A stretch of 45,540 bases of DNA from an uncultured Bacilli bacterium (GTDB lineage Bacteria > Bacillota_I > Bacilli_A > RF39 > UBA660). The position numbers and the translations under genes are program-made. A model generated the notes under the pieces. It did not search any database and was not told where the DNA came from. It worked only from the letters and a program-made list of their open reading frames with translations. The stretch lies in contig CANRPL010000003.1 of NCBI GenBank assembly GCA_947632495.1, positions 1-45,540 of the forward strand, read 5' to 3'. Of this stretch, positions 4,440 to 45,540 are shown piece by piece; position 1 is the stretch's first letter, and every line of letters starts with the position of its first letter.

Positions 4440-4465
4440 AAAATAGGAGGTTAACTCCTATTTTT
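4439..4465. terminator. Bidirectional terminator between convergent sigK and nifJ
   Basis: aaaaataggag-gttaa-ctcctattttt. Confidence 0.85.
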
Positions 4466-7400
4466 CAAGACTTTGATAATATTCGAATGACTTCATCGCA
4501 TAATCACGATTAGCCTCTAATAAAGAACTAGCTTTATCAGGGTTAATTACTTTAAGCATATTATAACGCGTTTGGTTATTTAAAAATTCATCATATAACG
4601 TAAAATCAACTTTCTTACTATCCAAAGTAAAACCATCGTCCGGATGTCTTCTAAACGTTAAGAAATATCCACATTCAGTAGCTAATTTTTCCATCGCTAC
4701 ACTATTTTCCATACCACCCTTAATACCATGAGAGATACATGGTGTGTAGGCAATAATAATAGCTGGTCCATCATACTCATTAGCTTCTTTAAAAGCTTTA
4801 ATAGCCTGAACAGGATTAGCCCCTAATGAGATTTGCGCAACATAAACATCTGGATAAGACATCGCTATACGTGCCAAATCCTTTTTATTAGTCTTTTTAC
4901 CTGTGGATGCAAACGAAGCAATCGCACCTTTAGGACTGGCTTTAGATGATTGACCACCCGTATTTGAATATACTTGGCTATCTAAAACTAAAATTTTAAT
5001 ATTATCATGACTTGCTAAAACATGGTCAATACCACTGAATCCAATATCATAAGCCCAACCATCACCACCAATACACCAAATATTACGCATCGTAATATAA
5101 TCCTTTAAGTCTTTTAATTCTTTAGGTATATTATCAGTTAAATGATCATAGACATCTTTAGTTACTTCATAACTATTAGGATTTTCTAACCACTTACTAA
5201 ATAGTGGAGCATTTTCATTATCCATATTTTGACTCATAATACGCGCTATTTTATGACGCGTAATATTGTTAGCGACTAACATACCATAGCCATATTCAGC
5301 ATTATCCTCAAATAGACTGCTAGCCCATGGAACCGTATATGGTATATTAGGGGCACTACCACCATAGATTGATGAACAACCTGTCGCATTACTAATAATT
5401 AGATGTTCACCAAATAATTGAGTAAGTAATTTAATATAAGCTGTTTCACCACATCCAGCACAGGCTCCAGAAAAGGCAAAGCGGGGTTTATTAAATTGGC
5501 TATTCTTAAGAGTATAGGTATTACCTATCTCTTTTTTAGAAATATTTTGATCTAAATAATCAAATACCTCTTGTTCAGATTGATCAATCTGATCCATCAT
5601 TAACGCCTTATTGCCACGCATACCTGGGCAAATATTAACACAGACACCACAACCCGTACAATCAGCGACAGAGGCACTTACAATATAATAGTAGTCCATA
5701 CCTATAGCCTTAATAGCGCGGTCTTTAATAATATCCGGTGCAGCTTGATATTCTTGTTCATCTAATAAGAAAGGTCTTATAACACCATGTGGACAATATA
5801 GTGAACATTGATTGCAATTAGAGCAATTTTTATTAATCCAACGGGGAACAACGGAGCTGATATATCGCTTTTCAAGACTACTTGTTCCACTTTCAAATAT
5901 ACCGTCAGCACGATCAACAAAAGCCGATACCTTTAAACTATCCCCTTTACGTTTCATAATTGTTTCTAGGAAAGATAAATTTTCTAATTTTGGTTCTTCA
6001 CCTGTCATTTCAAGTGAAAATTCTTGTATTTTTTTAGTAACTAAATTAATAGAATCAAGATTAGCTTTGACGACTTGATCGCCCTTTTTAGCAAATTTAG
6101 TTTTGATACTATCAGCAATCTTATCAAGAGCCTCATCATATGGGATAATATTACTTAAATACATAATGGCGCTTTCCATAATCATACTGATTTTACCCTT
6201 TAAACCAACTTGATCAGCTAATTCATAAGCATTGATGTAATAAAGATGGGCATGACGTTTAATTAATACTTCTTTTAAATGCTTATTCATCATTTTATTT
6301 ATTTCTTCTTTAGAATGAATAGAATTGATAATAACCGTACAGTTATCCATAACATCATCTAATAGTTCAAATTCTTCTAAATACTTATCTTTAGCAACAA
6401 CTACTAAAGAAGGTTTTAACACATAATAAGAAGAACGAATACATTTTGGACTAAAGCGTAAGTGACTACAAGTTACACCACCACTTTTTTTAGAATCGTA
6501 TTGAAAATATCCTTGAACATAATTATCAGTATTATCACCAATTAATTTAATAATTGATTTAGAAGCACTAACCATACCATCACTACCATAGCCATAGATA
6601 AGCCATTCATGAGCTTGGTCAATATCGATAGGTACGGGTGTTAAACTTAAATGGGTTACATCATCATCAATACCGATTGTAAAATTATTAACTGGATGAT
6701 TTAACATATCATATACGGCATTAATATCCGCTGGTGTCGTATTTTTACTAGATAAACCATAACGTCCACCAACAATATTGATATCTTTATCTTTAAGAGC
6801 ATTAACAACATCTAAATATAGTGGTTCACCATTACTACCAGCCTCTTTAGTACGATCTAAAACCGCTATGGCTTTTACAGATTTAGGAAGGACATTACAT
6901 AAGTATTTGGCACTAAAAGGTCGATATAGATGAACTTCAATTAAACCGACATCATCTTTAGTATCCACAACTTCTTTAATAGTTTCACAAACTGATCCCA
7001 TGGCTACTATAACTTTAGATGCATTCTTACTTCCATAGTAATTAAATGGTTTATAGTCCGTATCAGCTTTCACATTTATTTTTTCCATATATTCATTGAC
7101 AATATCTGGTAAGGCGTCATAATATTTGTTACGAGCTTCCGTTGTTTGAAAATAAATATCTTCATTTTGTGCGGTACCATAAGTACATGGATGATGAGGA
7201 TTTAAAGCGCGCATACGAAATTTAGTTAAAGCATTTTGATCAATCATATCGGCATAATCCGTAGCTTCTAAAACATCTATTTTTTGAATTTCATGACTTG
7301 TTCTAAAGCCATCAAAGAAATGCATAAAAGGTAAACTAGATTTAATACTAGCTAAATGCGCTACCGCACTTAAATAAGCGGTATCTTGAACTGAAGAAGA

Positions 7401-7820
7401 TGCTAACATTGCAAAGCCAGTCATACGGCAGGCATAAATATCTTGATGATCGCCAAAGATACTAAGCGCATGAGTCGATAAAGAACGAGCCGCTACATGA
7501 ATGACACCAGGTAACATCTCACCAGCAATTTTATACATATTAGGAATCATTAAAAGAAGTCCTTGACTAGCAGTAAAGGTCGTCGTTAAACATCCAGCTT
7601 TTAATGAGCCATGAATGAAACCCGCTGCTCCACCTTCACTTTGCATCTCAACAACTTTAACTTTATCATTAAATAAATTTAGACGTTTACTACTCATCTC
7701 ATCTATATGTTCAGCCATTGGACTAGATGGTGTGATAGGATAGATACCAGCTACCTCTGTAAACATATAAGCTGTATAACTGCAAGCTTCATTACCATCA
7801 ACGGTTATTTTCTTCTTCAT
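4458..7820 (-). CDS. nifJ: Pyruvate:ferredoxin (flavodoxin) oxidoreductase, single-chain type
   Basis: YPITPSS, EMQSEGGAAG, FFDGFRTSHE, YDSKKSGG, two CxxCxxCxxxCP motifs, GACAGCGET, TPP motif GGDGWAYDIG, YSNTGGQ. Confidence 0.97.
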   Translation of the reverse strand: MKKKITVDGNEACSYTAYMFTEVAGIYPITPSSPMAEHIDEMSSKRLNLFNDKVKVVEMQSEGGAAGFIHGSLKAGCLTTTFTASQGLLLMIPNMYKIAGEMLPGVIHVAARSLSTHALSIFGDHQDIYACRMTGFAMLASSSVQDTAYLSAVAHLASIKSSLPFMHFFDGFRTSHEIQKIDVLEATDYADMIDQNALTKFRMRALNPHHPCTYGTAQNEDIYFQTTEARNKYYDALPDIVNEYMEKINVKADTDYKPFNYYGSKNASKVIVAMGSVCETIKEVVDTKDDVGLIEVHLYRPFSAKYLCNVLPKSVKAIAVLDRTKEAGSNGEPLYLDVVNALKDKDINIVGGRYGLSSKNTTPADINAVYDMLNHPVNNFTIGIDDDVTHLSLTPVPIDIDQAHEWLIYGYGSDGMVSASKSIIKLIGDNTDNYVQGYFQYDSKKSGGVTCSHLRFSPKCIRSSYYVLKPSLVVVAKDKYLEEFELLDDVMDNCTVIINSIHSKEEINKMMNKHLKEVLIKRHAHLYYINAYELADQVGLKGKISMIMESAIMYLSNIIPYDEALDKIADSIKTKFAKKGDQVVKANLDSINLVTKKIQEFSLEMTGEEPKLENLSFLETIMKRKGDSLKVSAFVDRADGIFESGTSSLEKRYISSVVPRWINKNCSNCNQCSLYCPHGVIRPFLLDEQEYQAAPDIIKDRAIKAIGMDYYYIVSASVADCTGCGVCVNICPGMRGNKALMMDQIDQSEQEVFDYLDQNISKKEIGNTYTLKNSQFNKPRFAFSGACAGCGETAYIKLLTQLFGEHLIISNATGCSSIYGGSAPNIPYTVPWASSLFEDNAEYGYGMLVANNITRHKIARIMSQNMDNENAPLFSKWLENPNSYEVTKDVYDHLTDNIPKELKDLKDYITMRNIWCIGGDGWAYDIGFSGIDHVLASHDNIKILVLDSQVYSNTGGQSSKASPKGAIASFASTGKKTNKKDLARIAMSYPDVYVAQISLGANPVQAIKAFKEANEYDGPAIIIAYTPCISHGIKGGMENSVAMEKLATECGYFLTFRRHPDDGFTLDSKKVDFTLYDEFLNNQTRYNMLKVINPDKASSLLEANRDYAMKSFEYYQSLEK

Positions 7821-7845: not shown

Positions 7846-7873
7846 AAAAGGAAAGATATTGACTATCTTTCCT
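7846..7873 (-). terminator. Intrinsic terminator closing the PFL-like operon
   Basis: aggaaagata-ttgac-tatctttcct with T-run on the minus strand, directly at the stop of 7872..8981. Confidence 0.8.
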
Positions 7874-8981
7874 AACTTAAACATTTTGATTTGATGGCAT
7901 TTTCAATCTTATTATATCCTGATGTACGATAGTGAACTGCATCACCAAAATCAGAATTTGTAAGGCCTAAACCAGTACTGATATCGCAGTATTTTAGGTT
8001 CTTAACACGAGCATTACGAAGAGATTGTTCCATTTGAGTATTAAAGGTATCAATACTAGCTTTAGAAACAGGCCATCTACCACCACTGTTTACGCCTCTA
8101 ATAGGTGTAACTGAAGCAAAGACAACATAATGATTTTTCCATTCTGATTGAGCTTGACTAACAACTAAACTAGCATATTTTTGGGCTGAAGATCGCCCAA
8201 AATTAACATCGGAGCCAACATCATTAGCACCCATTAAAATAACAATATTATAACGTGTATTAGGATCTCTATTAAGTAGACCATTAACAGATGAAATCGC
8301 TGTTGATTTGAACCAAGCATACCCCATGGCGCCTCTTGCTACAGCTAATTCACCACGACAAGAACCAACATATAAAGAAACTGTTGCTTGACCACAGAAA
8401 CCAACCGTTCTTGAGTCACCGACATAAATTGTCTTTGTTCCTTTTTTACCTGTACGATTACTTGTTGTCGGTTCTCCTATATTACTATAAGCATTAGAAT
8501 GCGTCTCATCGGTAACATTATTACCAGAACTTGATGCATGACAATTGTCCCCCTCATCCGTTCCATTATAGTATAAGAAACATGATATGCATTCGGAAAC
8601 AGATTTAGTATCATTATCATTACTTGTTACTCTAGTAATTACAAATTGGACTATAGCAGCAATAAGAAAAATAAAGGCTGCCATAATAAATTTTTTAAAT
8701 AATTTTTCCTTTGCCTTAAGCACCTTATCGGCATCACCTTTTCTAATAGCACTAATTAAGGTTATAATTGAAAAAATCATTAAGACTAATGGAGCGCCTA
8801 CCGTAAGAAGAGTATACGCAATTGTTGTAAGTTGAGGAATAGGTTTCGGTATTCCTTCTGCACTACCACAGCCAACATACTCTAAAGCACCAGCATATTT
8901 AGCTAGACTATCACTAGTAAAAAGGATTATACCCATAAAAATGAGATATAAAGATCCTAAAATCTTACACTTTTTACTCAT
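7872..8981 (-). CDS. Membrane protein: TrbC/VirB2-pilin-like two-helix domain fused to an SGNH/GDSL hydrolase domain
   Basis: Signal-like N-terminus, two hydrophobic helices joined by GDADKVLKAKEKL, Cys-containing S/T/N linker, then SGNH blocks YVGDSRT, GAND and DAVHY. The SGNH call is strong; the pilin-like call is pattern recognition. Confidence 0.7.
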   Translation of the reverse strand: MSKKCKILGSLYLIFMGIILFTSDSLAKYAGALEYVGCGSAEGIPKPIPQLTTIAYTLLTVGAPLVLMIFSIITLISAIRKGDADKVLKAKEKLFKKFIMAAFIFLIAAIVQFVITRVTSNDNDTKSVSECISCFLYYNGTDEGDNCHASSSGNNVTDETHSNAYSNIGEPTTSNRTGKKGTKTIYVGDSRTVGFCGQATVSLYVGSCRGELAVARGAMGYAWFKSTAISSVNGLLNRDPNTRYNIVILMGANDVGSDVNFGRSSAQKYASLVVSQAQSEWKNHYVVFASVTPIRGVNSGGRWPVSKASIDTFNTQMEQSLRNARVKNLKYCDISTGLGLTNSDFGDAVHYRTSGYNKIENAIKSKCLS

Positions 8982-8982
8982 A

Positions 8983-9579
8983 CTATGCCTCCTTTAGTAA
9001 TTCTTTTAATTCATTTAACTCACCATCAGATAACTCTTCACTTGTAAGTTCAATATTTTTAATACTTTCATACATACCTAAATACTTTTTTAAGGCATGA
9101 ATGTACTCATGGCTATCATTTAAGCCCTTTTTGATAACTTGTTTAGCACTAATAGTAATTTTAGCTTCCTCTAACATATTAACAAATTTATTAACATTTA
9201 ACAAATCGTCAGTGCTTAAATTATTATAATTATATAAAGGGATACTATCTATTTCTAAAATAACGAAATCGATATGTTTAAATAAATCGCTATCTAAAGG
9301 AACACCAATACCATTAGTTATAATGCAAGTTGTAAAACCTGCCTTATGCGATATTTTAGTCGTCTCCTTTAGATAATCACTTTGCTTAAACAAAGAGGTT
9401 CCCATAAATGTTACACCACCATCATCAGGTCCAATATAAGGTCGAAACTTACGAATACGGTCGACCGTCTCGTTAGGTGTTAACGTCACGACAGCATCAT
9501 CATCCAATTTAATAACCGTCCTAATACCTGGTCCAGCATCAAAAGACATAGGATCAATAGATGTTATATTACCTTTCAT
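8983..9579 (-). CDS. Pyruvate formate-lyase activating enzyme homolog lacking the radical-SAM motif (predicted inactive)
   Basis: PflA landmarks GPGIR, GGVT, TCxxTNG, GLND, IKNIEL are present; there is no CX3CX2C (only one Cys in the protein) and GGE is replaced by GTS. 4-bp overlap with the PFL-like gene. Confidence 0.85.
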   Translation of the reverse strand: MKGNITSIDPMSFDAGPGIRTVIKLDDDAVVTLTPNETVDRIRKFRPYIGPDDGGVTFMGTSLFKQSDYLKETTKISHKAGFTTCIITNGIGVPLDSDLFKHIDFVILEIDSIPLYNYNNLSTDDLLNVNKFVNMLEEAKITISAKQVIKKGLNDSHEYIHALKKYLGMYESIKNIELTSEELSDGELNELKELLKEA

Positions 9580-11789
9580 TGTAGCACCTCATGATAAGTT
9601 TGATCAATTAAGCTCTCTTGTTGTTGAGTACTTAATTCTTTATATCTTATCGCACAACCGCCACTACGAAGAACGATATCTGAACCTTTTTTATCATTAT
9701 CTTTAGCATCCAATAGAACTTTCTTGTCAATTAAATTAAACTCGATATGCGTTCCCTTTTGGCCAAAGAAACTATCTAAAAGAACCATCATATTATTGGC
9801 GCGTTCATTTCTTTTAGTACCTAATGTATTAGCTGTTGTATTGACCGTTGTAACAATACCATTTTGACATAGATTACTAGGCAGACGCATAACTGACTTA
9901 AGGCTATTAATTAAACTCTTATTATCGATATTGCTGATAGGATTAGCATTGAAAGCAAAAGGTGCGCCTTTAAAACGTCCGTCAGGAGTTGCTCCCGTGT
10001 TAGTGCCACAAACAACATTCAAAAATGATGATGCAATTCCCATTTTAATAGTCGCATTACGATACATATGATGACTTTGTAACTCTTTACTAATCATCTT
10101 AATAGTATCTGATGCTAATTTATCGACCGTTACATCACCCAAACCAAAACGTGGAAAACTATCTTTAATAACAAAGTCCGTACTTAATCCATTTTCATCA
10201 CGATTAACTTGAACATCAGCAAATCTAATTGCTGATAGAGAATCAATAACATTAGCAAAACCAATAAGATTAAAAGTCATTGAACGTTCAACAACAGTAT
10301 CATTAAAAGCCATTAAAGAACTTTCATATCCATACTTATCATGCATATAATGGATAACATTTAAGGCATCATCTTGAATAGAAATGACCTTTTTTAGAAC
10401 TTTAACAAAATTTTTTACGACTTCAGAATAATTTAATTTCTTACCAGTAAGAGGCTCAATACCACCGATAACCATTTCGCCAGTTAATTCATCACGGCCG
10501 CCATTGATGGCGTATAGTAAAACTTTAGGTAAATTACAACTGCCACCATAGTAGTCAATTTGTTTGCCAATTTTTGATAATCCCGCCATACCTGTACTAG
10601 CATATTCAAAGCTATTTAATGTATCAGCATTTAAAAATTGTAGACAATTAAATTTAAGCATCATTTTAATACAATAACGTTTAAAATTAACTGGTAATCT
10701 ACTAGACCATAAAATTGTATAATTAGGCACTTCATAAGCACCAATATTTTCAAGTGAATTTAAAATACGATAAGATGTTTTAGTAATCATCGAATGATCA
10801 CCACTCATCCCACCAATCGTCTCTGTTATAATTGGTGCCATACCTGGAAAGCAACTCAAGTATTCAGGGGTACGTAAATATCTAAGTAGACGCAATTTAA
10901 TTAAGAATTGATCAACTAATTCTTGAGCCTCTTCCTCTGTTAATACTTGAAGGGCGATATCTCGTTCAATATAAATATCTAAAAAAGGACTATTATTTCC
11001 TGTTGGTAGTGAGACACCATATGTTTCTTTAGCGCCAGCTAGATAAGCTAAATATAACCATTCAAAAGCTTCTTTAGCGTTAGAAGCTGGTTTAGATACG
11101 TCAATATCATAAGTACTAGCCATTTGTTTTAATGCTTTTAAGGCCGCAATCTGTTTAATTACTTCCTCACGAGTTCGTACAACAGAATAATTAATATCCT
11201 TACGAAGACGTTCTAAATCGCGTTCTTTTTGTTTGATTAAATAATCGGCACCATATAAAGGTAAGCGACGATAATCACTGACAATAAAGCCACGTCCAAA
11301 AGTATCAGGCAACCCATCAATAAGATGGACTTCTTTAAACTTTTTTATTTCCTTTGTATAAACTTCATTTACCGCATCTTCATAACTTACTTGAAATTCT
11401 CTAAAGGATTCTTCAACATCATGATTAAAACGATAACCGTTACTCTTAAGAACACCTAATGAAGTATTAAGCGATATATATGGATTGATGAAATGTTTTA
11501 AAGGTTCATCCGTCTGTAAACCAACAATAATTTCATTTTTCTTATCAACATAACCAGGATCAAAATGATTAATACCCGCTAACGAAAGACTATCGACATC
11601 TAAAAGATGAGCTGCTTCTTCTTTATCTAATAATTTTTGAACTCGGCTTAAAAGACGTGTCGTTTTACGACTTATACCTTTTAGAAAATCAGAATTACCA
11701 ACATATTCTGTGTAATTATTGAGGATAAAATCTTCAACATCAGGGGTGCGTTGCCATTTAGTCCCTTTAAATCCATTCCATGCTTCCAT
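9576..11789 (-). CDS. Pyruvate formate-lyase (PflB) homolog lacking catalytic Cys-Cys (predicted inactive)
   Basis: Colinear with PflB over 737 aa (AWxGF, DFIxxNYTxY, EIIVGLQTDEPLK, GLPD, DYRRLPLYG, EEEAQELVD, LRTPEY, LYAINGG, IHYMHDKY, TGATPDGR); IACCVS is replaced by STGMAG and RVSGY by RSGGC. Confidence 0.9.
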   Translation of the reverse strand: MEAWNGFKGTKWQRTPDVEDFILNNYTEYVGNSDFLKGISRKTTRLLSRVQKLLDKEEAAHLLDVDSLSLAGINHFDPGYVDKKNEIIVGLQTDEPLKHFINPYISLNTSLGVLKSNGYRFNHDVEESFREFQVSYEDAVNEVYTKEIKKFKEVHLIDGLPDTFGRGFIVSDYRRLPLYGADYLIKQKERDLERLRKDINYSVVRTREEVIKQIAALKALKQMASTYDIDVSKPASNAKEAFEWLYLAYLAGAKETYGVSLPTGNNSPFLDIYIERDIALQVLTEEEAQELVDQFLIKLRLLRYLRTPEYLSCFPGMAPIITETIGGMSGDHSMITKTSYRILNSLENIGAYEVPNYTILWSSRLPVNFKRYCIKMMLKFNCLQFLNADTLNSFEYASTGMAGLSKIGKQIDYYGGSCNLPKVLLYAINGGRDELTGEMVIGGIEPLTGKKLNYSEVVKNFVKVLKKVISIQDDALNVIHYMHDKYGYESSLMAFNDTVVERSMTFNLIGFANVIDSLSAIRFADVQVNRDENGLSTDFVIKDSFPRFGLGDVTVDKLASDTIKMISKELQSHHMYRNATIKMGIASSFLNVVCGTNTGATPDGRFKGAPFAFNANPISNIDNKSLINSLKSVMRLPSNLCQNGIVTTVNTTANTLGTKRNERANNMMVLLDSFFGQKGTHIEFNLIDKKVLLDAKDNDKKGSDIVLRSGGCAIRYKELSTQQQESLIDQTYHEVLQ

Positions 11790-11817: not shown

Positions 11818-13833
<2,016 letters not shown>

Positions 13834-13871: not shown

Positions 13872-13899
13872 AAAAAACTATATCTTTAAGATATAGCTT
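13872..13899 (-). terminator. Terminator after dfx
   Basis: Minus strand gctatatct-taa-agatatagt followed by a T-run. Confidence 0.75.
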
Positions 13900-14263
13900 A
13901 TTCTTCTACTTCTTTTTCCCATAGACCATGTTTATTACAATATGCATATAATTTAGCATGTGGATAATAATCAAATGTAACTGTAGCTTCATGATGAGGA
14001 GCTAATTTTTTGGTAACTATTTCTTTTGGAGACTCCATACTGATCCACTCAATATAGTGATCATCATCCATAACATGATTAACCGTTACTTCCATTTTAT
14101 TTTCTTTAATCGTATAAGTTGGAACGTGTTTCTCAAAAGCTGCATCGACAGAATTAGGAACGACATCCTCCATCTTTTCATCGCAGCACATAAAACCACA
14201 TTTACAATGACAATCATCAATTACATAAATGAAAGCTCCACAATTATTACATTTTTTATACAT
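13898..14263 (-). CDS. dfx: Desulfoferrodoxin / superoxide reductase
   Basis: CxxC...CC desulforedoxin centre, EKHVP, HxMxxxHYIEWI, YCNKHGLW. Start set at ATG 14263 after AAGGTG. Confidence 0.93.
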   Translation of the reverse strand: MYKKCNNCGAFIYVIDDCHCKCGFMCCDEKMEDVVPNSVDAAFEKHVPTYTIKENKMEVTVNHVMDDDHYIEWISMESPKEIVTKKLAPHHEATVTFDYYPHAKLYAYCNKHGLWEKEVEE

Positions 14264-14274
14264 ATAAATCACCT

Positions 14275-16803
14275 TTACCCTTTCAAAAGCGCTAAACGCT
14301 CTTTTTCTTCACTTAATTTTTTACGATCAGCTTCAACAATATTAGCTGGTGCTTTAGAAACATAATTTTCATTACTTAATAATTTTTCACGGCGCGCTAC
14401 TGATTCCTCTAACTTTTTAATCTCTTCCTCTTTTTTAGATTCATCTTCTTTCGTACCCTCATAGTAATAGGTAATATCGATATATTTAGACTTATAATTA
14501 CTTGTCAAGTAATGATCATCTTCTACTTGTAAAAGATTTTCATCTTTGATTTTCAATTGAGAACGATAGATAAGTTCGATAGCATCATCAACAACATATT
14601 TTACTTTAGCTTGTTTAGTAATATTATTAGTTGCTTTAAGATTTCTAATAGCGATGATATCCTCTAAAATTTTATTTAATTTATCTTCTTCTTTTTCATA
14701 ATTTATATCTTCAACATGAGGATAAGGACTTATCATAATAGACGCACTATCTTTAATTGGTAACATCAAATATATCTCTTCTGTTACATATGGCATAAAA
14801 GGATGAAGCATTTTTAAAATATCGGTTAATACTTTTAATAAAACACTCTTATTAGTATTACTCATATCACTTTTAGATAATTCAATATACCAATCACAGA
14901 AATTATCCCAAATAAAATTATATAAAGTATTACCAACGTTATGGAAATCATAAGTATCCATATTTTTTCTTACTTCTTTAATCGTCTTATTTAACTTATT
15001 TAACATCCATTTATCAGCTAAAGAAAGATTATCTAAAGTATAATCCTTATCACTGAAACCTTCTAGATTCATAAGAACAAAACGAGAGGCATTCCATAAT
15101 TTATTAATAAAATTCCAAGCTGACTTAACTTTTTCTTCATCATATCTTAAATCAGCACCAGGAGCTGAATTAGTCGTTAAGAAAAATCTTAAAGCATCAC
15201 AGCCATATTCTTCAATGACATCCATCGGATCTACACCATTACCTAAACTTTTGCTCATCTTACGACCTTCTTTATCACGGATTAAGCCATGTATTAAGCA
15301 ATCTTTAAATGGACGTTTATCCGTAAACTTTAAACCCTGGAAAGTCATACGATTAACCCAGAATGGAATAATATCATACCCCGTAACTAGAACATCATTA
15401 GGATAATAGCGTTTAAAATCTTCACTATCTGATGGCCAACCTAAAGTGGCAAAAGGCCATAAAGCACTACTAAACCAAGTATCTAAAACATCATTATCTT
15501 GAACCCAGCCATCACCTTCTGGTGGATTAACTCCTACATATACTTCGTCACCCTTGTACCAAGCTGGAATACGATGACCCCACCATAATTGACGAGAAAT
15601 ACACCAATCATAAGTTATTTCCATCCAATGGTTCATCGTCTTTTCATAATGTGGGGGAACAAAATTAACTTTCTTACTCTTTTTCTTTTGATTTTCTAAA
15701 ACACGATCGGCTAAAGGACGCATCTTAACAAACCACTGTTTTGATAAATAAGGTTCAACGACAGCATCAGTTCTCTCACTATGACCAACACTATGAACCA
15801 TTTCCTCAATACTGATTAAAATGCCACTTTCTTTTAAATCAACAAGAAGAGCTTCGCGACACTCTTCACGCGTCATACCAGCATACTTGCCTGCATTTTC
15901 ATTCATTGTAGCATCCTCATTCATAACAACTACACGTTCTAGATTATGGCGATTACCAACTTCAAAGTCGTTAGGATCATGAGCTGGTGTTATCTTAACG
16001 ACACCAGTTCCAAAGGTAGGATCAGCATGTTCATCTCCGACGATAGGGATTAATTTATTTACAACCGGTAAAATAACATTTTTACCAATAAGATGCTTAT
16101 AGCGATCATCATCAGGATTAACGGCGACAGCTGTATCACCAAATAATGTTTCAGGTCTAGTTGTAGCGACATCTAAATATTCATCAGTTCCTTCAATATA
16201 GTACTTTAAATGATAGAAAGCACCTTTATCATCTTTATAGATTACTTCTTCATTAGATAAGGCTGTTTTCGCTACAGGATCCCAGTTAATAATACGTTCT
16301 CCGCGATAGATTAAACCCTCATTATATAAATCAACAAATACTTTTTTAACCGCACGAGTTAAATTTTCATCTAAAGTAAAAGCCTCTTTACGATAATCTA
16401 AACTAAGCCCTAATTTAGCCCACTGTGAACGGATATTATCTGAATATTCATGTGTCCAATCCCAACAAGCTTTAAGAAAATCGTCACGGCCTAGTTCGTA
16501 TTTATCAATACCATTTTGGCGTAATTTTTGAACAACTTTAGCCTCTGTAGCGATAGCGGCATGATCCATTCCTGGTAGCCATAATGTATCATATCCATCC
16601 ATTCGTTTATAACGAATAATCAAGTCTTGAAGGGTTGTATCCCAAGCATGACCTAAATGTAATTTACCTGTAACGTTAGGTGGTGGAATAACAATACAAT
16701 ATGGTTTCTTACTTAAATCACCACTCTCAAAATAACCAGCTTCTTTCCACTGATAGTATTTTCCTTCTTCAACCTTTAAATGATTATACTTTGTATCTAG
16801 CAT
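14275..16803 (-). CDS. valS: Valine--tRNA ligase
   Basis: [44 protein letters not shown]-terminal coiled arm; Val T-box upstream. Confidence 0.98.
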
Positions 16804-17528
16804 GATATCACTCCTTTAATATAATTACTTAAAAAGGTATATAATTCCGATAAATCTTGATGAGTATTAACTTCTAATAAATTTATCTTATTTTCAATTA
16901 TTTTTTCCTTTAAAACAAATTCAAATGTGTACTTAAAATTAATATCAAAAATAAAACCTAGCATTAGAAGAATCATATCACAAGAGTTATGAGCATCTTT
17001 TTTATCACAAGTTTCTTTATGCATTAAATTATCAAATAGTACTTGAGAAATTATAGGATGATCTTCTTTAATAACTAATCCCTGTTCTTTTAAAATATCC
17101 ATCTTATCAGCATCACGAACAATTCTAGCCACTAAAAGTTCTTCTTCACTACCATTTGGTACCTCTTTAGCGCCATGATATCTTACAGCAAATAAAATAA
17201 TATTTTGTTCATCTTCTTGATCAGTAAGTTTATTAATCATACCCTCTTTTAAAATATCGTAGCCTAATTTAGCATGATCAAGAGACTTTAAATCATCAAA
17301 CGTATGATAATCCTGCATCTGTTTAAAGCGACCTAAATCATGAAATAAGGCACATAAGTAAACAAGATGGCACATTCTTTCATCAAGTTCTAAAGAACGC
17401 GCTATCGCTTTAGCATAAGCAACCACTCGGTATGAATGATGAAACTTGCCCATAATAGGTTTTTGTTTAAGATCAAATTGTTTAACATAATCATTAAATA
17501 AATTACGTGCTTCTTCCAATGAAATCAT
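16797..17528 (-). CDS. HD-domain phosphohydrolase
   Basis: HSYRV...LFHDLGR...DH...H...RDADKMD metal-binding pattern; GGAGG RBS; overlaps the valS start. Confidence 0.88.
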
Positions 17529-17539
17529 ATATCCTCCAT

Positions 17540-17765
17540 AAAAAAACGGTCCATCCTAAAAAGGACGAAGACCGTGGTACCACCTTTATTCGTAAACATT
17601 GTTTACCTCTAAACGATAACGTCGTTAACGATATATTTTACTATTAGTTCTAATATATAGCTCCCAAGCTACCTTCAATTAATCTTCATTAAGAAAGGCT
17701 TTCACCCAATGACCTTTCATCGCTAATAACTACTAATTAATTTACTCCTCTTGTTCTTCGCCTTT
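17540..17765 (-). promoter_or_regulatory. T-box riboswitch, valine specifier
   Basis: T-box AAAGGTGGTACCACG (about 17573-17587), AGTA elements, GGTGAAA apical motif, specifier GAAG-GTA-GC (GUA = Val, 17670-17672), terminator acggtc...gaccgt + T-run; TGTTATAAT upstream near 17785. Confidence 0.93.
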
Positions 17766-17875
17766 GTAATACTTACATCAATAATTATAACATATGTTCT
17801 TTTGTTTGAAAAGATAAAACATCTTTTTTTTTAAATTAAAAGAAGGTATAATTAAAATAGAAAGATGGCGTAAAA

Positions 17876-19132
17876 ATGGAAATAGAAGGTATGCATAAAA
17901 AACATAAATTAGCTTGTGATCAATATGAAGAAATAAAAAAGCCCAAAGAGATTTACCTACCTCTTATTATCGGTAATGATACTGATCTAGTAGTCCTAGT
18001 TAAAGTTGGTGATCACGTCTATAAAGAGACGATGGTAGCCTATAACAAAGGTAAATTTAAATCTTATCTACATTCAAGTATTAGTGGAACGATTAAAGCT
18101 ATAGAAGATAAAACATACTCTAATGGTCAAAAAGTTAAATGTTTAATAATTGAAAATGACTATAAAGAACAAGTCCAAAAAAGAACTGGCGTTAAAGAGG
18201 AAATCAATAACTATAGTAAAGAAGAATTTATTGAAATAATCAAAAATGCTGGCATTGTTGGATTAAGTGGTAATGGATTTCCTACATATGTTAAATATGA
18301 TACGGATAAAAAGATTAAAACCTTAATTGTCAATGCGATAGAATGTGAGCCTTACTTAACAGCTGATTATACCATTTTAAAAAATAAATATCGCGAAATA
18401 TTAGAAGCTATCGACGCGATATTAGATATTAATAAAATTGATGAATGTCTGATCTGTATATCTAAAAGGAATCGAAAACTTATCAAACTATTAAATCAAT
18501 ATACAGGAACTTATTTAAGAATCAAAATTGTTAGCATTAAAAATGCTTATCCGATGGGATGGGAAAAAGGATTAATCAAAGAGGCAACTGGGCTAACTTA
18601 TGATGGCCTTCCTAGTGAATGCGGTATTATAGTCAACAATGTATCAACAATATACGCGATCTATAAAGCCTTAAAAAGTGGTACACCACTATTGGAACGT
18701 ATTATTACAATATCGGGAGAATTAGCCCCTAAACACACTAATGTTTTAGCGAAAATTGGTACCCCTATCAAAGACATAATTGGGGAAGTAGACTCAAATA
18801 ATGTTTTAATTATCGCTGGTGGTCCAATGATGGGTCATGCATTAGTTGATTTTGATACTATGGTAACCAAACAGGCTAATGGATTACTACTTATAAAAAA
18901 AGAAGATAGGCAAGAAACAGCTTGTATTCACTGTGGTAAATGTCTTAAATATTGTCCATGTCATCTAGCACCCATTCTCGTAAAAGGAAAAAATAAAGAC
19001 GAATTAAAAAAATTAAATGTTGATAAATGTATGGATTGTGGTCTATGCTCCTATGTCTGTCCTGCACGTATTCCTTTAAAAGACTACATGGATGAAGCTA
19101 AAAAAAGCATCAAGGAGGTATCACATGAATAA
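17876..19132 (+). CDS. rnfC: RnfC/RsxC-like flavin/Fe-S electron transport subunit
   Basis: HSSISG, AGIVGLSGNGFPT, NAIECEPYLTAD, YPMGWEK, GGPMMG, CIHCGKCLKYCP and CMDCGLCSYVCP. Confidence 0.9.
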   Translation: MEIEGMHKKHKLACDQYEEIKKPKEIYLPLIIGNDTDLVVLVKVGDHVYKETMVAYNKGKFKSYLHSSISGTIKAIEDKTYSNGQKVKCLIIENDYKEQVQKRTGVKEEINNYSKEEFIEIIKNAGIVGLSGNGFPTYVKYDTDKKIKTLIVNAIECEPYLTADYTILKNKYREILEAIDAILDINKIDECLICISKRNRKLIKLLNQYTGTYLRIKIVSIKNAYPMGWEKGLIKEATGLTYDGLPSECGIIVNNVSTIYAIYKALKSGTPLLERIITISGELAPKHTNVLAKIGTPIKDIIGEVDSNNVLIIAGGPMMGHALVDFDTMVTKQANGLLLIKKEDRQETACIHCGKCLKYCPCHLAPILVKGKNKDELKKLNVDKCMDCGLCSYVCPARIPLKDYMDEAKKSIKEVSHE

Positions 19133-19979
19133 CAATGGTCCTTATATTTTTAGTAAACTATCTACTAAAAGAATAAACTTAAATATTCTTTTAGCGCTTC
19201 TACCAATTACTTTTTACTTTATTATTAAAGATATTAACACCCTAATACCATTAGGAACAATCGTAATAACAACCTATCTATCAGGTATATTATTACACTA
19301 TCTATTTCATCATCAGCTAGTAATAGATGACTTAAGTACCATTAATATTGGGTTAATATTAACATTACTTCTACCTACTGATATTCCTTTTTACTTCTTG
19401 ATAATTGGAAGTATAAGCGCTACAGCAGGTAAATTCATCAGTAAAGATTTACTTAATCCACCTTTAATAGGTTTTATTGTTATCATTTTATTAAGCCTAT
19501 TATTTCGTTATAGTATCAACTTTCCAGGATATGATCTTATCAGCATCATTTTAGTTATTGGCGGATTAATATATCTTATTCTAACAAAATCTATTAAATA
19601 TGAAATTGTCATTAGTTATCTTTTGATGATCGTCACTATCTTTATCATTATGACATGGAAAAATAGTTTACCTATTGATAATCTTTTAGAAGAACGTCTT
19701 CTTCTAACTGGTATATTTCTATTAATGCATCATCAAAGTACACCTATAACTCAACATAGTATGATTATCTATGGCCTATTTATCGGTATCGTTACAGCTT
19801 TTATCTATTATCATACTCTACTACCTAGTGGCATTATCATCAGCATTTTAACCGCTAATCTTTTTACCCATATTTTAGATTATTTAATTTTAACTAAAAG
19901 AAGAATATTTATTATCATACCATATAGTATATTATTAATATTATTTGGTATAACTTTACTGACAAACATAAGTATTTAA
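19125..19979 (+). CDS. Degenerate RnfD-like integral membrane protein
   Basis: GPYI N-terminus, ILLALLP, DLST...GLILTLLLP, LNP, GGLIYL, STPIT...YGLFIG resemble RnfD; the FMN-threonine loop is absent. Start ATG 19125 with GGAGGT, overlapping the rnfC stop. Confidence 0.75.
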   Translation: MNNNGPYIFSKLSTKRINLNILLALLPITFYFIIKDINTLIPLGTIVITTYLSGILLHYLFHHQLVIDDLSTINIGLILTLLLPTDIPFYFLIIGSISATAGKFISKDLLNPPLIGFIVIILLSLLFRYSINFPGYDLISIILVIGGLIYLILTKSIKYEIVISYLLMIVTIFIIMTWKNSLPIDNLLEERLLLTGIFLLMHHQSTPITQHSMIIYGLFIGIVTAFIYYHTLLPSGIIISILTANLFTHILDYLILTKRRIFIIIPYSILLILFGITLLTNISI

Positions 19980-21811: not shown

Positions 21812-21830
21812 TATTACTTAATTGGTTTTT
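21798..21830. terminator. Bidirectional terminator
   Basis: aaaaaccaattaa-tattac-ttaattggttttt between convergent stops at 21811 and 21829. Confidence 0.85.
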
Positions 21831-22590
21831 ATATACGATGATAATCTAATCTTAATTTGTCAGCTATTGTAACAATAAATTCACTATTAGTCGGTTTAGC
21901 TTTATCGACATCAACACTATGTCCAAAGATTTCTTCCATTAAATCCCAGCTACCACGATTCCAACTAACTTCAATCGCATGTCTAATAGCTCTTTCTACA
22001 CGTGATACTGTCGTATCGAACTTACTAGCTAATTCAGGATACAACTCTTTTGTAATACCTCCGACAGTTTCAGGTCGGTCATATAAAATATTGATACCTT
22101 CACGAATATATTGATATCCCTTAATATGGGAAGGAATACCTAATTCATGTAATATCTTTGAAATTGAACATTGAATATTATTGTATTCCATATCAATAAT
22201 CTTATTATCATACTCTTTATTAGCAATATCTAAAATTCTCTTTTCTAAATCACTTAATTCAAATGGTTTTAACACATAATAATTAACGCCATATTCAGAA
22301 ACTTCTCTTATTACATCCATCGAATTATAACTAGTCGCTACAATAACTTTCTTATTAATATTCTCTTCTTTCATACACTCTAAAACATATAATCCATCTT
22401 TACCTGGCATAATTAAATCTAAAATAATAACATCAAAATCATCAGCATTATTTCTTATTAACTCCATGCCAGCATTACCATCATTAGCTGTCAAGGTAAT
22501 ATCAATTTCTTTATTTCTTTTAAAATATTCTTTAACCGCTTCAATTAAATTTTCATTGTCATCAATCATTAGGACACGAACGTTTTTCAT
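21829..22590 (-). CDS. spo0A: Sporulation master regulator Spo0A
   Basis: Receiver domain (IDDN, LDLIMP, LKPF) plus Spo0A C-domain LHELGIPSHIKGYQY, ITKELYP, SRVERAIRHAIEVSW, KPTNSEFI. Confidence 0.97.
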   Translation of the reverse strand: MKNVRVLMIDDNENLIEAVKEYFKRNKEIDITLTANDGNAGMELIRNNADDFDVIILDLIMPGKDGLYVLECMKEENINKKVIVATSYNSMDVIREVSEYGVNYYVLKPFELSDLEKRILDIANKEYDNKIIDMEYNNIQCSISKILHELGIPSHIKGYQYIREGINILYDRPETVGGITKELYPELASKFDTTVSRVERAIRHAIEVSWNRGSWDLMEEIFGHSVDVDKAKPTNSEFIVTIADKLRLDYHRI

Positions 22591-27911: not shown

Positions 27912-29987
27912 TTATTTATAAATTTCAAAGTATTTTTTAGAAATTTTTTGGGCAATACGCTTATTAACAGTAGATAACTGGCGATAAGTGATATTACCAG
28001 TACCAGCATCTGGTGTTATAACGGTAAAAGTAACTTTAGGATCATCATATGGCGCATAAGCTACAACCGTACTGGAAATCGTCTCGGTATCGACAATGCC
28101 ATCACCATCACTATCGACAAAACTTTGGCTTGTACCAGTTTTACCAGCTGGCTTATATTTATTGCTGATAAAACCATAACCAGTACCATTAGCAAAAACC
28201 ATACGTAAACCTTTTTTAATACGAGTAAAGTATTTTTTATCTCCCTCTACCTGATTTAAAATAACCGGTGTATTAGTATAAATTAAATCGGTTAAACCAT
28301 CTTTAGTAGGAGCATAAACACGTTTTAAAAGAGTTGGTTTTATTCTTGTACCATCATTAGCAACAGTATTAATATATTGTGCCATCTGGATAGTTGTATA
28401 ATTATCATACTGACCAATTGCAAAATCTAAAAGAAAACCTGAATCGGTAGATGTACCTTTATAACCAGCAAACTCATTTGGTAAATCAATACCAGTCTTT
28501 ACCCCTAACCCAAATTGAGCAAAAATATTACGATAAGTATCAAAAGCTTTAGGGTCCAATTTTAATGGTTTGTTATAACGATATTTGCCTTTTCCCACCT
28601 TAATGGCAGTTTGAAATTGATAGGTATTAGAAGAATAAGACAAAGCTTGAACATCATTAATATTACCATATCTAGTATAAGAGCACTTAAGAGGTGTAGC
28701 CGCAATCTTAATGCAGGCATCATTACGTACTTCACCAATTTTAAGATTACCCGTAACATACCCGACCATATGTGATGCGGCCTTAACAGCTGAACCAGGT
28801 GTTATTGTAGCGTTAATAACACCAACTGAATCATCATATATTTTGTACTCTCCATTTTCTTTTTTAATTTGCTTACCAACCATCGCTAAAATTCCCCCTG
28901 TTTTAGGATCACTGATAACGACAAAAGCACGATCAAAATATTTGGTATAACGATCTTTCGTTTTTGTTTTTAATAATTCACTTTCAACAATTTTTTCAAT
29001 TTCTTTTTGAAGTTCAATGTCAATACTTAAGACAATATCATTACCCCTCTTACCTTCTTCTAAAACGACATAATTACCATTATCATCTAAAGTATATTTT
29101 GTCTTTGTACCTCTTAAAATACTTTCATATTGATATTCAAGATAACTTGTACCAACCCGATCAGACAAATTATAGCCAATCGCTAAATAAGAATCTTTTA
29201 ATTCGGCAGGTAAACCACTCGAACTTGATGACACACTACCTAATAAGGTGCGAAAGACGTTTCCATATGGATAGTCTCTTTCCCAATCTAACTTTGTACC
29301 AAAGCCAGATAATAATTCGTCGTTAGCGCCTATAGCCGCATATTCTTCATCAGTTACATCTTTATTTTTAATTGTTTTTTCAGCATAGTAATAGCCTTTA
29401 TTCATTAAGTAATAGATATAGGCAGCTTCCCGATCAATATCATTATATTCTTTTAACTCATCATCCGTAACTCGTTCAATCTTATATTTTTCAATATCAT
29501 CTTTATCAATACGTCGTTCCGCTAAAGCTTGCCACTCTTCATCAGTAATCTTTTTTTCCGCTGATAAAGGATTATTAGTAACCCAAAAACTTTTTAGAGC
29601 ATAATCTGTTAAAGGAGTAGCATCAATATCTAATATTTCCGCTACTTTATAGGCTTTAACGACTTCTTCTTGAACAGTAACATTAGCCTTCTTTTTATAA
29701 TAAATGGTTTTGACTGCTTTATTATCGACGATAATCTTTCCATTACGATCATAAATGCGGCCCCTTGGGGCACTATCACCTTCGATAATTACTTGGCTTA
29801 ACTCTTTTAATTGTTCTTGATAATAACTACTTTTAACAATCTGAACATAAAAAAGAGAAGAAGCTAACACAACAAAAAGAATAGTTACAGCTACTATTAA
29901 AATTTTATATCGCTTATTAACAACAATCATATCTTCTTCTAATGAATACTTATGTTGTTTTCTAAAGTAATTAATCTTTTTTTTCAT
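27912..29987 (-). CDS. Class B penicillin-binding protein (PBP2a/PbpA-like)
   Basis: N-terminal TM, PRGRIYDRNG, LEYQYESIL, SxxK (SAVK), SSN, TGIDLP, IGQY, KTGT. Confidence 0.92.
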   Translation of the reverse strand: MKKKINYFRKQHKYSLEEDMIVVNKRYKILIVAVTILFVVLASSLFYVQIVKSSYYQEQLKELSQVIIEGDSAPRGRIYDRNGKIIVDNKAVKTIYYKKKANVTVQEEVVKAYKVAEILDIDATPLTDYALKSFWVTNNPLSAEKKITDEEWQALAERRIDKDDIEKYKIERVTDDELKEYNDIDREAAYIYYLMNKGYYYAEKTIKNKDVTDEEYAAIGANDELLSGFGTKLDWERDYPYGNVFRTLLGSVSSSSSGLPAELKDSYLAIGYNLSDRVGTSYLEYQYESILRGTKTKYTLDDNGNYVVLEEGKRGNDIVLSIDIELQKEIEKIVESELLKTKTKDRYTKYFDRAFVVISDPKTGGILAMVGKQIKKENGEYKIYDDSVGVINATITPGSAVKAASHMVGYVTGNLKIGEVRNDACIKIAATPLKCSYTRYGNINDVQALSYSSNTYQFQTAIKVGKGKYRYNKPLKLDPKAFDTYRNIFAQFGLGVKTGIDLPNEFAGYKGTSTDSGFLLDFAIGQYDNYTTIQMAQYINTVANDGTRIKPTLLKRVYAPTKDGLTDLIYTNTPVILNQVEGDKKYFTRIKKGLRMVFANGTGYGFISNKYKPAGKTGTSQSFVDSDGDGIVDTETISSTVVAYAPYDDPKVTFTVITPDAGTGNITYRQLSTVNKRIAQKISKKYFEIYK

Positions 29988-44914: not shown

Positions 44915-44926
44915 AGCAAAAAAAAA

Positions 44927-45030
44927 ATTTGCAACACCCTATTTTCGCATACACTATCGTCGGCACTAAGAGTCTTAACTTCTGTGTTCGGGATGGGAAC
45001 AGGTGTATCACTCTTGCTATCGTCACAAAT
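44927..45030 (-). rRNA. rrf: 5S rRNA, short (about 104 nt)
   Basis: Minus strand ...CACCTGTTCCCATCCCGAACACAGAAGTTAAG...; terminal helix ATTTGTGAC/GTTGCAAAT. Confidence 0.96.
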
Positions 45031-45095
45031 TTAAATATGGGAAAATAATTCCCTGAAAACATGATAATGTGTAATCTCATCAATAAGAATAAATA

Positions 45096-45540
<445 letters not shown>

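Follow-up and report, generated by a model that had tools for sequence, protein, structure and literature searches.

A pyruvate formate-lyase and its activase, probably stripped of radical chemistry yet conserved in a clade of uncultured Bacilli

Can a pyruvate formate-lyase (PFL) and its activating enzyme be kept side by side once the residues on which their radical chemistry depends have gone? The question is raised by two adjacent genes in a 45,540-nucleotide stretch of the genome of an uncultured Bacilli bacterium (assembly GCA_947632495.1, contig CANRPL010000003.1, positions 1 to 45,540; this whole stretch is called the window). The gene at 9576..11789 encodes a PFL-derived protein of 737 aa (the PFL-like protein), and the gene at 8983..9579 a PflA-derived protein of 198 aa (the PflA-like protein). 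Coordinates are those of the window, and features lie on the reverse strand (-) unless a plus sign is given. Background cited to PMC13450708, PMC12338860 and PMC9326890 was taken from the available parts of those sources. In the first of these, a 2026 review, the conserved glycine and the Cys-loop cysteine are described as essential for catalysis by glycyl radical enzymes (GREs), whose active sites are formed by barrel strands plus two loops; C418 and C419 of PflB are both catalytically essential, and pyruvate is hydrogen-bonded by R435 and R176 (PMC13450708). Judged from sequence, the locus described here has very probably lost PFL and radical chemistry and is conserved all the same.

Active-site residues of the PFL-like protein and its family

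The PFL-like protein was aligned to Escherichia coli PflB by phmmer against the PDB, and residue correspondences were counted along the rows of that alignment. Residues 3-733 aligned to chain positions 10-756 (1h16_A/2pfl, E = 1.8e-172), gap-free around every named site. Both Pfam domains were matched (PFL-like PF02901, 415.3 bits; Gly_radical PF01228, 60.7 bits). The NCBIfam equivalog model for formate C-acetyltransferase, TIGR01255, spanned the whole protein at 730.7 bits (E = 2.2e-219), below its cut-off of 994.2. Identity to canonical Bacillota PFLs was 48-49%. Of the best 120 database hits, the 69 that are canonical PFLs served as the reference set.

At the place of the catalytic pair C418-C419 of PflB the protein has G400-M401 (10587..10592). 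The pyruvate-binding R176 is replaced by F168 (11286..11288), R435-A436 by S417-C418 (10536..10541), and W333 by I320 (10830..10832). The Gly loop, R731-V-S-G734-Y735 in PflB, reads R708-S-G-G711-C712 (9654..9668), so Y735 is also replaced and the Gly734 equivalent survives. An earlier sequence-only reading of this DNA had listed the loss of the Cys-Cys pair and of both arginines, the altered W333 segment and the change from RVSGY to RSGGC, all from a manual gap-free alignment to E. coli PflB; the phmmer alignment bore out both the alignment and the substitutions, and the coordinates were correct to within one codon. That reading had also held that a conserved cysteine at the finger-loop tip would mark an ordinary glycyl radical enzyme, and the Cys-loop segment 396-404 of the PFL-like protein contains no cysteine. 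As C418, C419, R176, R435, W333 and Y735 are each conserved in 69/69 canonical PFLs, the six substitutions are not a matter of chance.

The same losses define a family. Thirty-six full-length relatives (730-746 aa, 52-62% identity) were aligned with the window protein (alignment A1); P0017 (841 aa), P0039 (634 aa) and P0057 (566 aa), though clade-like, were left out for their length. The Cys pair, R176, R435 and W333 were absent in 36/36 relatives, and G711 was present in 36/36. Arginine was found in 0/36 at either arginine place: the R176 place was F in 30, Y in 5 and H in 1, and position 417, that of R435, was variable (S10 T10 N8 V5 I2 F1). The W333 place was I in 30, L in 4 and F in 2. Position 400 was G in 33/36, with a cysteine at this C418 place in 1/36, and position 401, the C419 place, was L, I, V, T, M or G and never cysteine (0/36); any cysteine within 396-404 was found in 4/36 members, at differing places. 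The Gly-loop motif RVSGY has become R-N/S-x-G-x, with N at position 709 in 32/36. The best TIGR01255 E-value among the 36 members was 2.2e-244, and from these E-values all of them are expected to fall below the model cut-off. The whole clade falls into one 50% cluster (representative P0026, 1296 bits; next protein, 798 bits), one member (P0005) is placed in generic formate acetyltransferase clusters of a protein atlas, and neither Pfam nor NCBIfam holds a dedicated model for this family or for that of the PflA-like protein.

The finger loops are hallmark motifs of canonical PFLs, yet their conservation in the PFL-like clade is below average (column entropy: Cys loop 1.55, Gly loop 1.35, protein mean 1.12), and segment 712-722 is among the least conserved. 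Among the best conserved is the segment KIGKQIDYYGG...NLPKVLLYAIN after the Cys loop (entropy 0.26-0.42), and the N-terminal segments are well conserved too. Alignment A1 has 130 invariant columns. In the 69 canonical PFLs 378 columns are near-invariant (>=97%), and the clade retains only 163 of these. Other residues are replaced and fixed clade-wide: P262, N265 and Y413 in 36/36 each, G416, K582, E683 and N381 in 35/36 each, and G584 in 34/36. These residues, with N709, we take to lie on barrel strands lining the active site.

The sequence-only reading had further proposed that new cysteines flanking the old active site might support an alternative thiol, redox or metal-binding chemistry, to be judged by their conservation among orthologs. 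Conservation fails. C712 was found in 12/36 family members (the rest being Y 17, I 4, F 1, V 1 and M 1) and C418 of the GGSCN motif in 28/36; both were present in 9/36 and neither in 5/36, and on the 83-row tree described below the C712 state and the C418 state each need 8 changes. The GGSCN cysteine does stand at the A436 place beside the R435S change, as had been reported. It is not new: 7/69 canonical PFLs carry it in the form GARCNL, and as these belong to the canonical group beside the PFL-like clade, C418 was inherited. The conserved cysteines of the family, C641 and C373, are likewise common to canonical PFLs (69/69 and 14/69). By the reading's own test, the idea of an alternative chemistry is removed for the PFL-like clade as far as residue conservation can tell, with the caveat that a sister clade has both cysteines in 12/12 members.

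The activase-like neighbour and the ancestral locus

The start of the PflA-like gene overlaps the stop of the PFL-like gene in an ATGA at 9576..9579, with a ribosome-binding-site-like GAGGTG upstream. Its product has no CX3CX2C motif, no conserved GGE and a single cysteine (C85). A Pfam scan gave no family at E <= 0.01, hence no Radical_SAM match, and the PflA equivalog model TIGR02493 matched at 70.8 bits against a cut-off of 231.75. The protein nevertheless matches E. coli PflA structures. GGE is the SAM-binding motif, a feature of radical-SAM proteins; the window protein has G-T-S where E. coli PflA has G-G-E, and this place is variable across the family.

The family of the PflA-like protein numbers 34 relatives besides the window's own (46-62% identity), of which 30 were aligned with it and with two canonical activases, P0156 and P0157 (alignment A2). 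Relative to the two canonical activases, a 16-column deletion removes the cluster motif in the window protein and in 30/30 aligned relatives, and about 21 C-terminal residues are deleted from the same proteins. When a profile of the family was compared with 3c8f (E = 2e-32), E. coli PflA residues 28-42, which hold C29, C33, C36, H37 and N38, were unmatched; in the window the loop is missing at the junction L25/D26 (9502..9507). The G-P-G-I-R motif of the N-terminal loop (9520..9534) is kept, and its G16, P17, G18 and R20 are invariant in 33/33 rows of A2. CX3CX2C is present in P0156 and P0157 and in the canonical activases of three syntenic genomes (L002, L003 and L026, below). A misplaced start or a frameshift hiding the cluster motif was rejected, since the N-terminus aligns from residue 1 and the identical clean deletion recurs in 30/30 relatives. 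One cluster-less member, P0153, is named 'pyruvate formate lyase activating enzyme' in one source, an annotation that mislabels the family.

Every GRE activase ligates its [4Fe-4S] cluster through CX3CX2C, which is C29/C33/C36 in the PFL activase (PMC13450708). Because the PflA-like protein has lost this Fe-S loop, the PFL-like protein could not receive a glycyl radical from its cognate partner, and the losses in both proteins, set against established enzymology, imply that the locus should neither make a glycyl radical nor cleave pyruvate.

Both losses appear to have occurred at the ancestral position. The gene order ValRS - x - ligA - PFL-like - PflA-like - small membrane protein - pyruvate:ferredoxin oxidoreductase (PFOR) was found in the window and in Bacillales bacterium UBA5578 (L001). 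In an Erysipelotrichaceae metagenome-assembled genome (MAG; L002), a Mycoplasmatota MAG (L003) and an uncultured Bacilli MAG (L026), ligA is directly followed by a canonical pflB and by a pflA of 232-237 aa with CX3CX2C. As the ligA-pflB-pflA order is common to these canonical relatives, the window genes are positional orthologs of pflBA that degenerated in place, and not extra paralogs. The synteny anchor ligA lies immediately upstream of the PFL-like gene in the window (11818..13818). Among the three canonical genomes the identities were 61-66% for LigA, 65-73% for PFL and 54-59% for PflA; between the window and L001 they were 75% for LigA, 56% for the PFL-like protein and 49% for the PflA-like protein, so that in the degenerate pair LigA is better conserved than PFL, the reverse of the usual order.

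Adjacency of the PFL-like and PflA-like genes was seen directly in the window and in L001, with tight coupling kept in both, and matching lengths of the longest contig suggest co-location for nine further pairs. In the genome scan, loci were found with peptide patterns common to canonical PFLs and family loci were told apart by motif, which gave one family member (L001), 78 loci with the canonical GRGR and one locus (L050) with no readable match. A third gene is tightly packed with the two: a membrane protein gene (7872..8981) that starts 1 nt after the PflA-like stop. The N-terminal 147 aa of its product are 51.7% identical to the ORF in the same place in L001 (8860-9309). A C-terminal GDSL/SGNH-like part is present in the window protein and absent from that of L001 (weak PF13472 match, E = 1.2e-4, below the cut-off).

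The PFOR gene (4458..7820) stands two genes downstream of the PflA-like gene, with a terminator-like hairpin, found by consensus scan only, between the unit and it (7849..7873). The window PFOR is 78.5% identical to that of L001 (9355-12738). A PFOR gene lies two genes past the dead pair in 2/2 degenerate loci and in 0/3 canonical syntenic loci (within 6 kb), a placement that fits a replacement of PFL by PFOR. The 45.5-kb window contains no further gene for a PFL, an activase, GrcA or FocA.

Divergence, selection and competing explanations

Phylogeny was reconstructed from 83 rows under LG+G4 by a quick search without a mixture model, so that the deeper joins are provisional. The PFL-like clade (37 rows) was monophyletic (SH-aLRT 100); its sister (SH-aLRT 96) was another degenerate clade, with 12 rows, and the two together adjoined canonical PFLs including one from an Erysipelotrichaceae MAG. 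Measured from the common node, the mean distance was 1.06 in the PFL-like clade and 0.64 in its sister, as against 0.28 in the nearest canonical PFLs; the PFL-like clade thus evolves 3.8-fold faster than its canonical neighbours.

The sister clade (P0043, P0044, P0048, P0054, P0061, P0062, P0068, P0070, P0093, P0105, P0112 and P0114) resembles the PFL-like clade in having T-G at the 417-418 place, in the loss of R176 and R435 and in the cysteine at the A436 place. It differs in keeping W333, in having K or E, not F, at the R176 place, and in its shorter distance (0.64 vs 1.06). The Cys-Cys place reads T-G-[C/S/A] (C5 S5 A2), with 5/12 keeping a cysteine at the C419 place, so the C419 equivalent is being lost piecemeal; R435 is replaced by S, Y735 by Cys in 12/12 and Gly734 by Glu in 3/12. 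From these residues the clade looks like an earlier or different stage, and its members may represent intermediates, or else a GRE that works by a new chemistry with a single cysteine. Outside both clades, six of the 13 longer 50%-cluster representatives examined (P0158, P0161, P0173, P0175, P0177 and P0185) also lack the Cys-Cys pair, in differing ways, which indicates that loss of PFL catalytic residues may have been repeated in other lineages.

Between the window and L001, dN/dS was 0.28 for the PFL-like protein, 0.24 for the PflA-like protein, 0.24 for ValRS, 0.12 for LigA and 0.15 for PFOR, rough values drawn from only one DNA pair with dS of 1.1-1.9, which is near saturation. Reading frames are intact in the 36 aligned PFL-like proteins (730-746 aa) and in the 30 aligned PflA-like proteins (about 195-199 aa), despite about 1 substitution per site and a genome of about 32% G+C, where stops arise easily. 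With dN/dS near 0.25 and the intact frames arguing likewise, both genes appear to be under purifying selection.

The losses, their family-wide conservation, the synteny and the rate pattern are observed, and the explanation that we favour, at slightly better than even confidence, is that of a pair of pseudoenzymes, degenerated together and retained for a role without radical chemistry. The pflB and pflA orthologs would both have lost radical chemistry in place, and purifying selection would have preserved the two translationally coupled genes throughout a clade of uncultured, low-GC members of the Bacilli. The two proteins may bind each other in a non-catalytic binding, scaffold or regulatory complex, a role to which we give a little less than an even chance; it would be a secondary role, retained once the conversion of pyruvate to acetyl-CoA had passed to PFOR. 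It is rather unlikely, although conceivable, that the GRE barrel and the activase were jointly converted in place to a radical-free two-protein module with a new function, which might be ligand sensing or regulation, or else radical-independent catalysis in a rebuilt barrel interior (K582, E683, N265, Y413, N709).

Several points weigh against the pseudoenzyme pair. G711 is invariant and N709 newly fixed, so the Gly loop is under a constraint that a plain scaffold role leaves unexplained, and the many fixed changes in the interior would suit a new ligand or catalytic site equally. Two clade members outside A1, P0017 and P0039, have a cysteine at the C419 place, and the single, nearly saturated comparison behind the dN/dS values counts here as well. 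Asp16 and Asn38 of the PFL activase anchor the Gly734 loop (PMC9326890); in the PflA-like protein A15 stands where Asp16 would be, with S in most of the family, and Asn38 lay inside the deleted loop, so recognition of the Gly loop by the PflA-like protein is doubtful.

The main rival is a neofunctionalised enzyme, in which the remodelled barrel would form a new radical-independent catalytic or small-molecule site and the PflA-like protein an accessory subunit. The clade residues are indeed fixed and not merely variable, charged and polar ones among them (K582, E683, N265, N381 and the Gly-loop N709), few segments are as well conserved as the one that follows the Cys loop (entropy 0.26-0.42), and G711 does not vary. 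No candidate nucleophile or metal site is conserved, however, C641 and C373 being common to canonical PFLs; at the tips of both finger loops conservation falls below the mean for the protein; and a full-text literature search, with most subscription papers and supplements outside it, found no solved or described non-radical enzyme with the PFL fold. We hold this rival to be unlikely. That the protein is still a glycyl radical enzyme, with G711 made radical in trans by an activase from another locus and C712, C418 or another residue taking over the thiyl or redox chemistry, would also account for the invariant glycine, and E. coli PflB without both cysteines still acquires the glycyl radical (PMC12338860). 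The sister clade, with C712 and C418 in 12/12 and a cysteine at the C419 place in 5/12, would fit such a course. Within the PFL-like clade itself the two cysteines come and go (both in 9/36, neither in 5/36, 8 changes each), no member of the 36 has a cysteine at the C419 place, the cognate activase has no cluster site, the flank of the Gly loop shows some of the lowest conservation in the protein, and the conserved Cys-loop cysteine is essential for GRE catalysis (PMC13450708); this explanation is less likely than the foregoing, to the point of being highly improbable.

Function might also be absent. The operon could be a slowly decaying relic, useless after takeover by PFOR and drifting to loss, as the 3.8-fold faster evolution, the retention of just 163/378 canonical near-invariant columns, the relaxed catalytic loops and, in the sister clade, the piecemeal loss of the C419 equivalent and the change of G734 to E in 3/12 would allow. 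Set against it are the frames that stay open in 36 PFL-like and 30 PflA-like proteins despite about 1 substitution per site on an AT-rich background, dN/dS near 0.25, the 130 invariant columns of A1, the new residues fixed clade-wide and the coupling retained in both genomes, which leave decay a less likely account, with a small chance of being right. Pseudoenzymes commonly regulate active relatives, and the PFL-like protein might thus act in the manner of a dead paralog, heterodimerising with, or titrating the partners of, a canonical PFL or another GRE elsewhere in the genome. Its N-terminal segments are well conserved, and the N-terminal helices are the conserved dimer interface of GREs (PMC13450708). 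The ancestral ligA-pflBA position argues that the sole copy was replaced and not a paralog added, and the 45.5-kb window holds no second PFL, activase, GrcA or FocA gene, so that this too is quite improbable. A role in a defence system was rejected: PADLOC gave nothing for the PFL-like protein and only weak viperin-like radical-SAM echoes for the PflA-like protein (E = 1.6e-4).

Other genes of the window and relation to known systems

Upstream of ligA, a small desulfoferrodoxin-domain (superoxide reductase-like) protein with a Cys-rich N-terminus is encoded at 13898-14272 (-), between it and the valyl-tRNA synthetase gene; the corresponding place in L001 is taken by an unrelated ORF of 292 aa. 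A T-box leader (17558-17767 (-), 119 bits) precedes two genes, one for an HD-domain protein (16797-17528) and one for valyl-tRNA synthetase (14275-16803). At 17876-19979 (+), RnfC-like and RnfD-like ORFs have a metallophosphoesterase gene after them in place of further rnf genes, possibly an incomplete Rnf cluster. A Spo0A gene (21829-22590 (-)) and a penicillin-binding protein gene (27912-29987) suggest a walled member of the Bacillota whose ancestry includes sporulation regulators. The window ends in a 5S rRNA gene and the 3' end of a 23S rRNA gene (44926-45540 (-)).

Both GREs and the enzymes that activate them are regarded as obligate radical machines, and a conserved pair without the means for either part of that chemistry would show the scaffold kept for another use. 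Within the scope given above, the literature search found no natural GRE without a Cys-loop cysteine, no cluster-less GRE activase and no report of such a pair, and the available part of the 2026 review makes no mention of natural cysteine-less or cluster-less members (PMC13450708). Should the pair prove to be a radical-free module with a new function, it would represent the first lineage of pseudoenzymes or neo-enzymes to come to light in nature for the GRE/activase system, and the sister clade would supply stepwise intermediates. Because these genes carry PFL and PFL-activase domain labels, metabolic reconstructions of these uncultured Bacilli would wrongly predict formate from pyruvate.

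With PflB (TIGR01255; 1h16/2pfl) the PFL-like protein shares full-length homology, both Pfam domains, the position after ligA and before pflA, and the Gly734 equivalent. It differs in that C418, C419, R176, R435, W333 and Y735 are all replaced, in its sub-cut-off TIGR01255 score, in the roughly 4-fold faster evolution of its clade, and in catalytic loops that are less conserved than the rest. The PflA-like protein is homologous over most of its length to PflA (TIGR02493; 3c8f/8fo0), keeps the G-P-G-x-R loop and is encoded directly after the PFL gene; in contrast to PflA, it is without the 15-residue loop that bears C29, C33, C36, H37 and N38, its GGE is unconserved and its last 21 or so residues are gone. 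The closest counterpart made in the laboratory is E. coli PflB C418A/C419A, which likewise has no Cys-loop cysteine and is inactive in vivo (PMC12338860). That variant acquires the radical (PMC12338860) and keeps R176, R435 and a working activase, whereas in the pair described here both arginines and the cluster site of the activase have gone too, and the state is natural and conserved.

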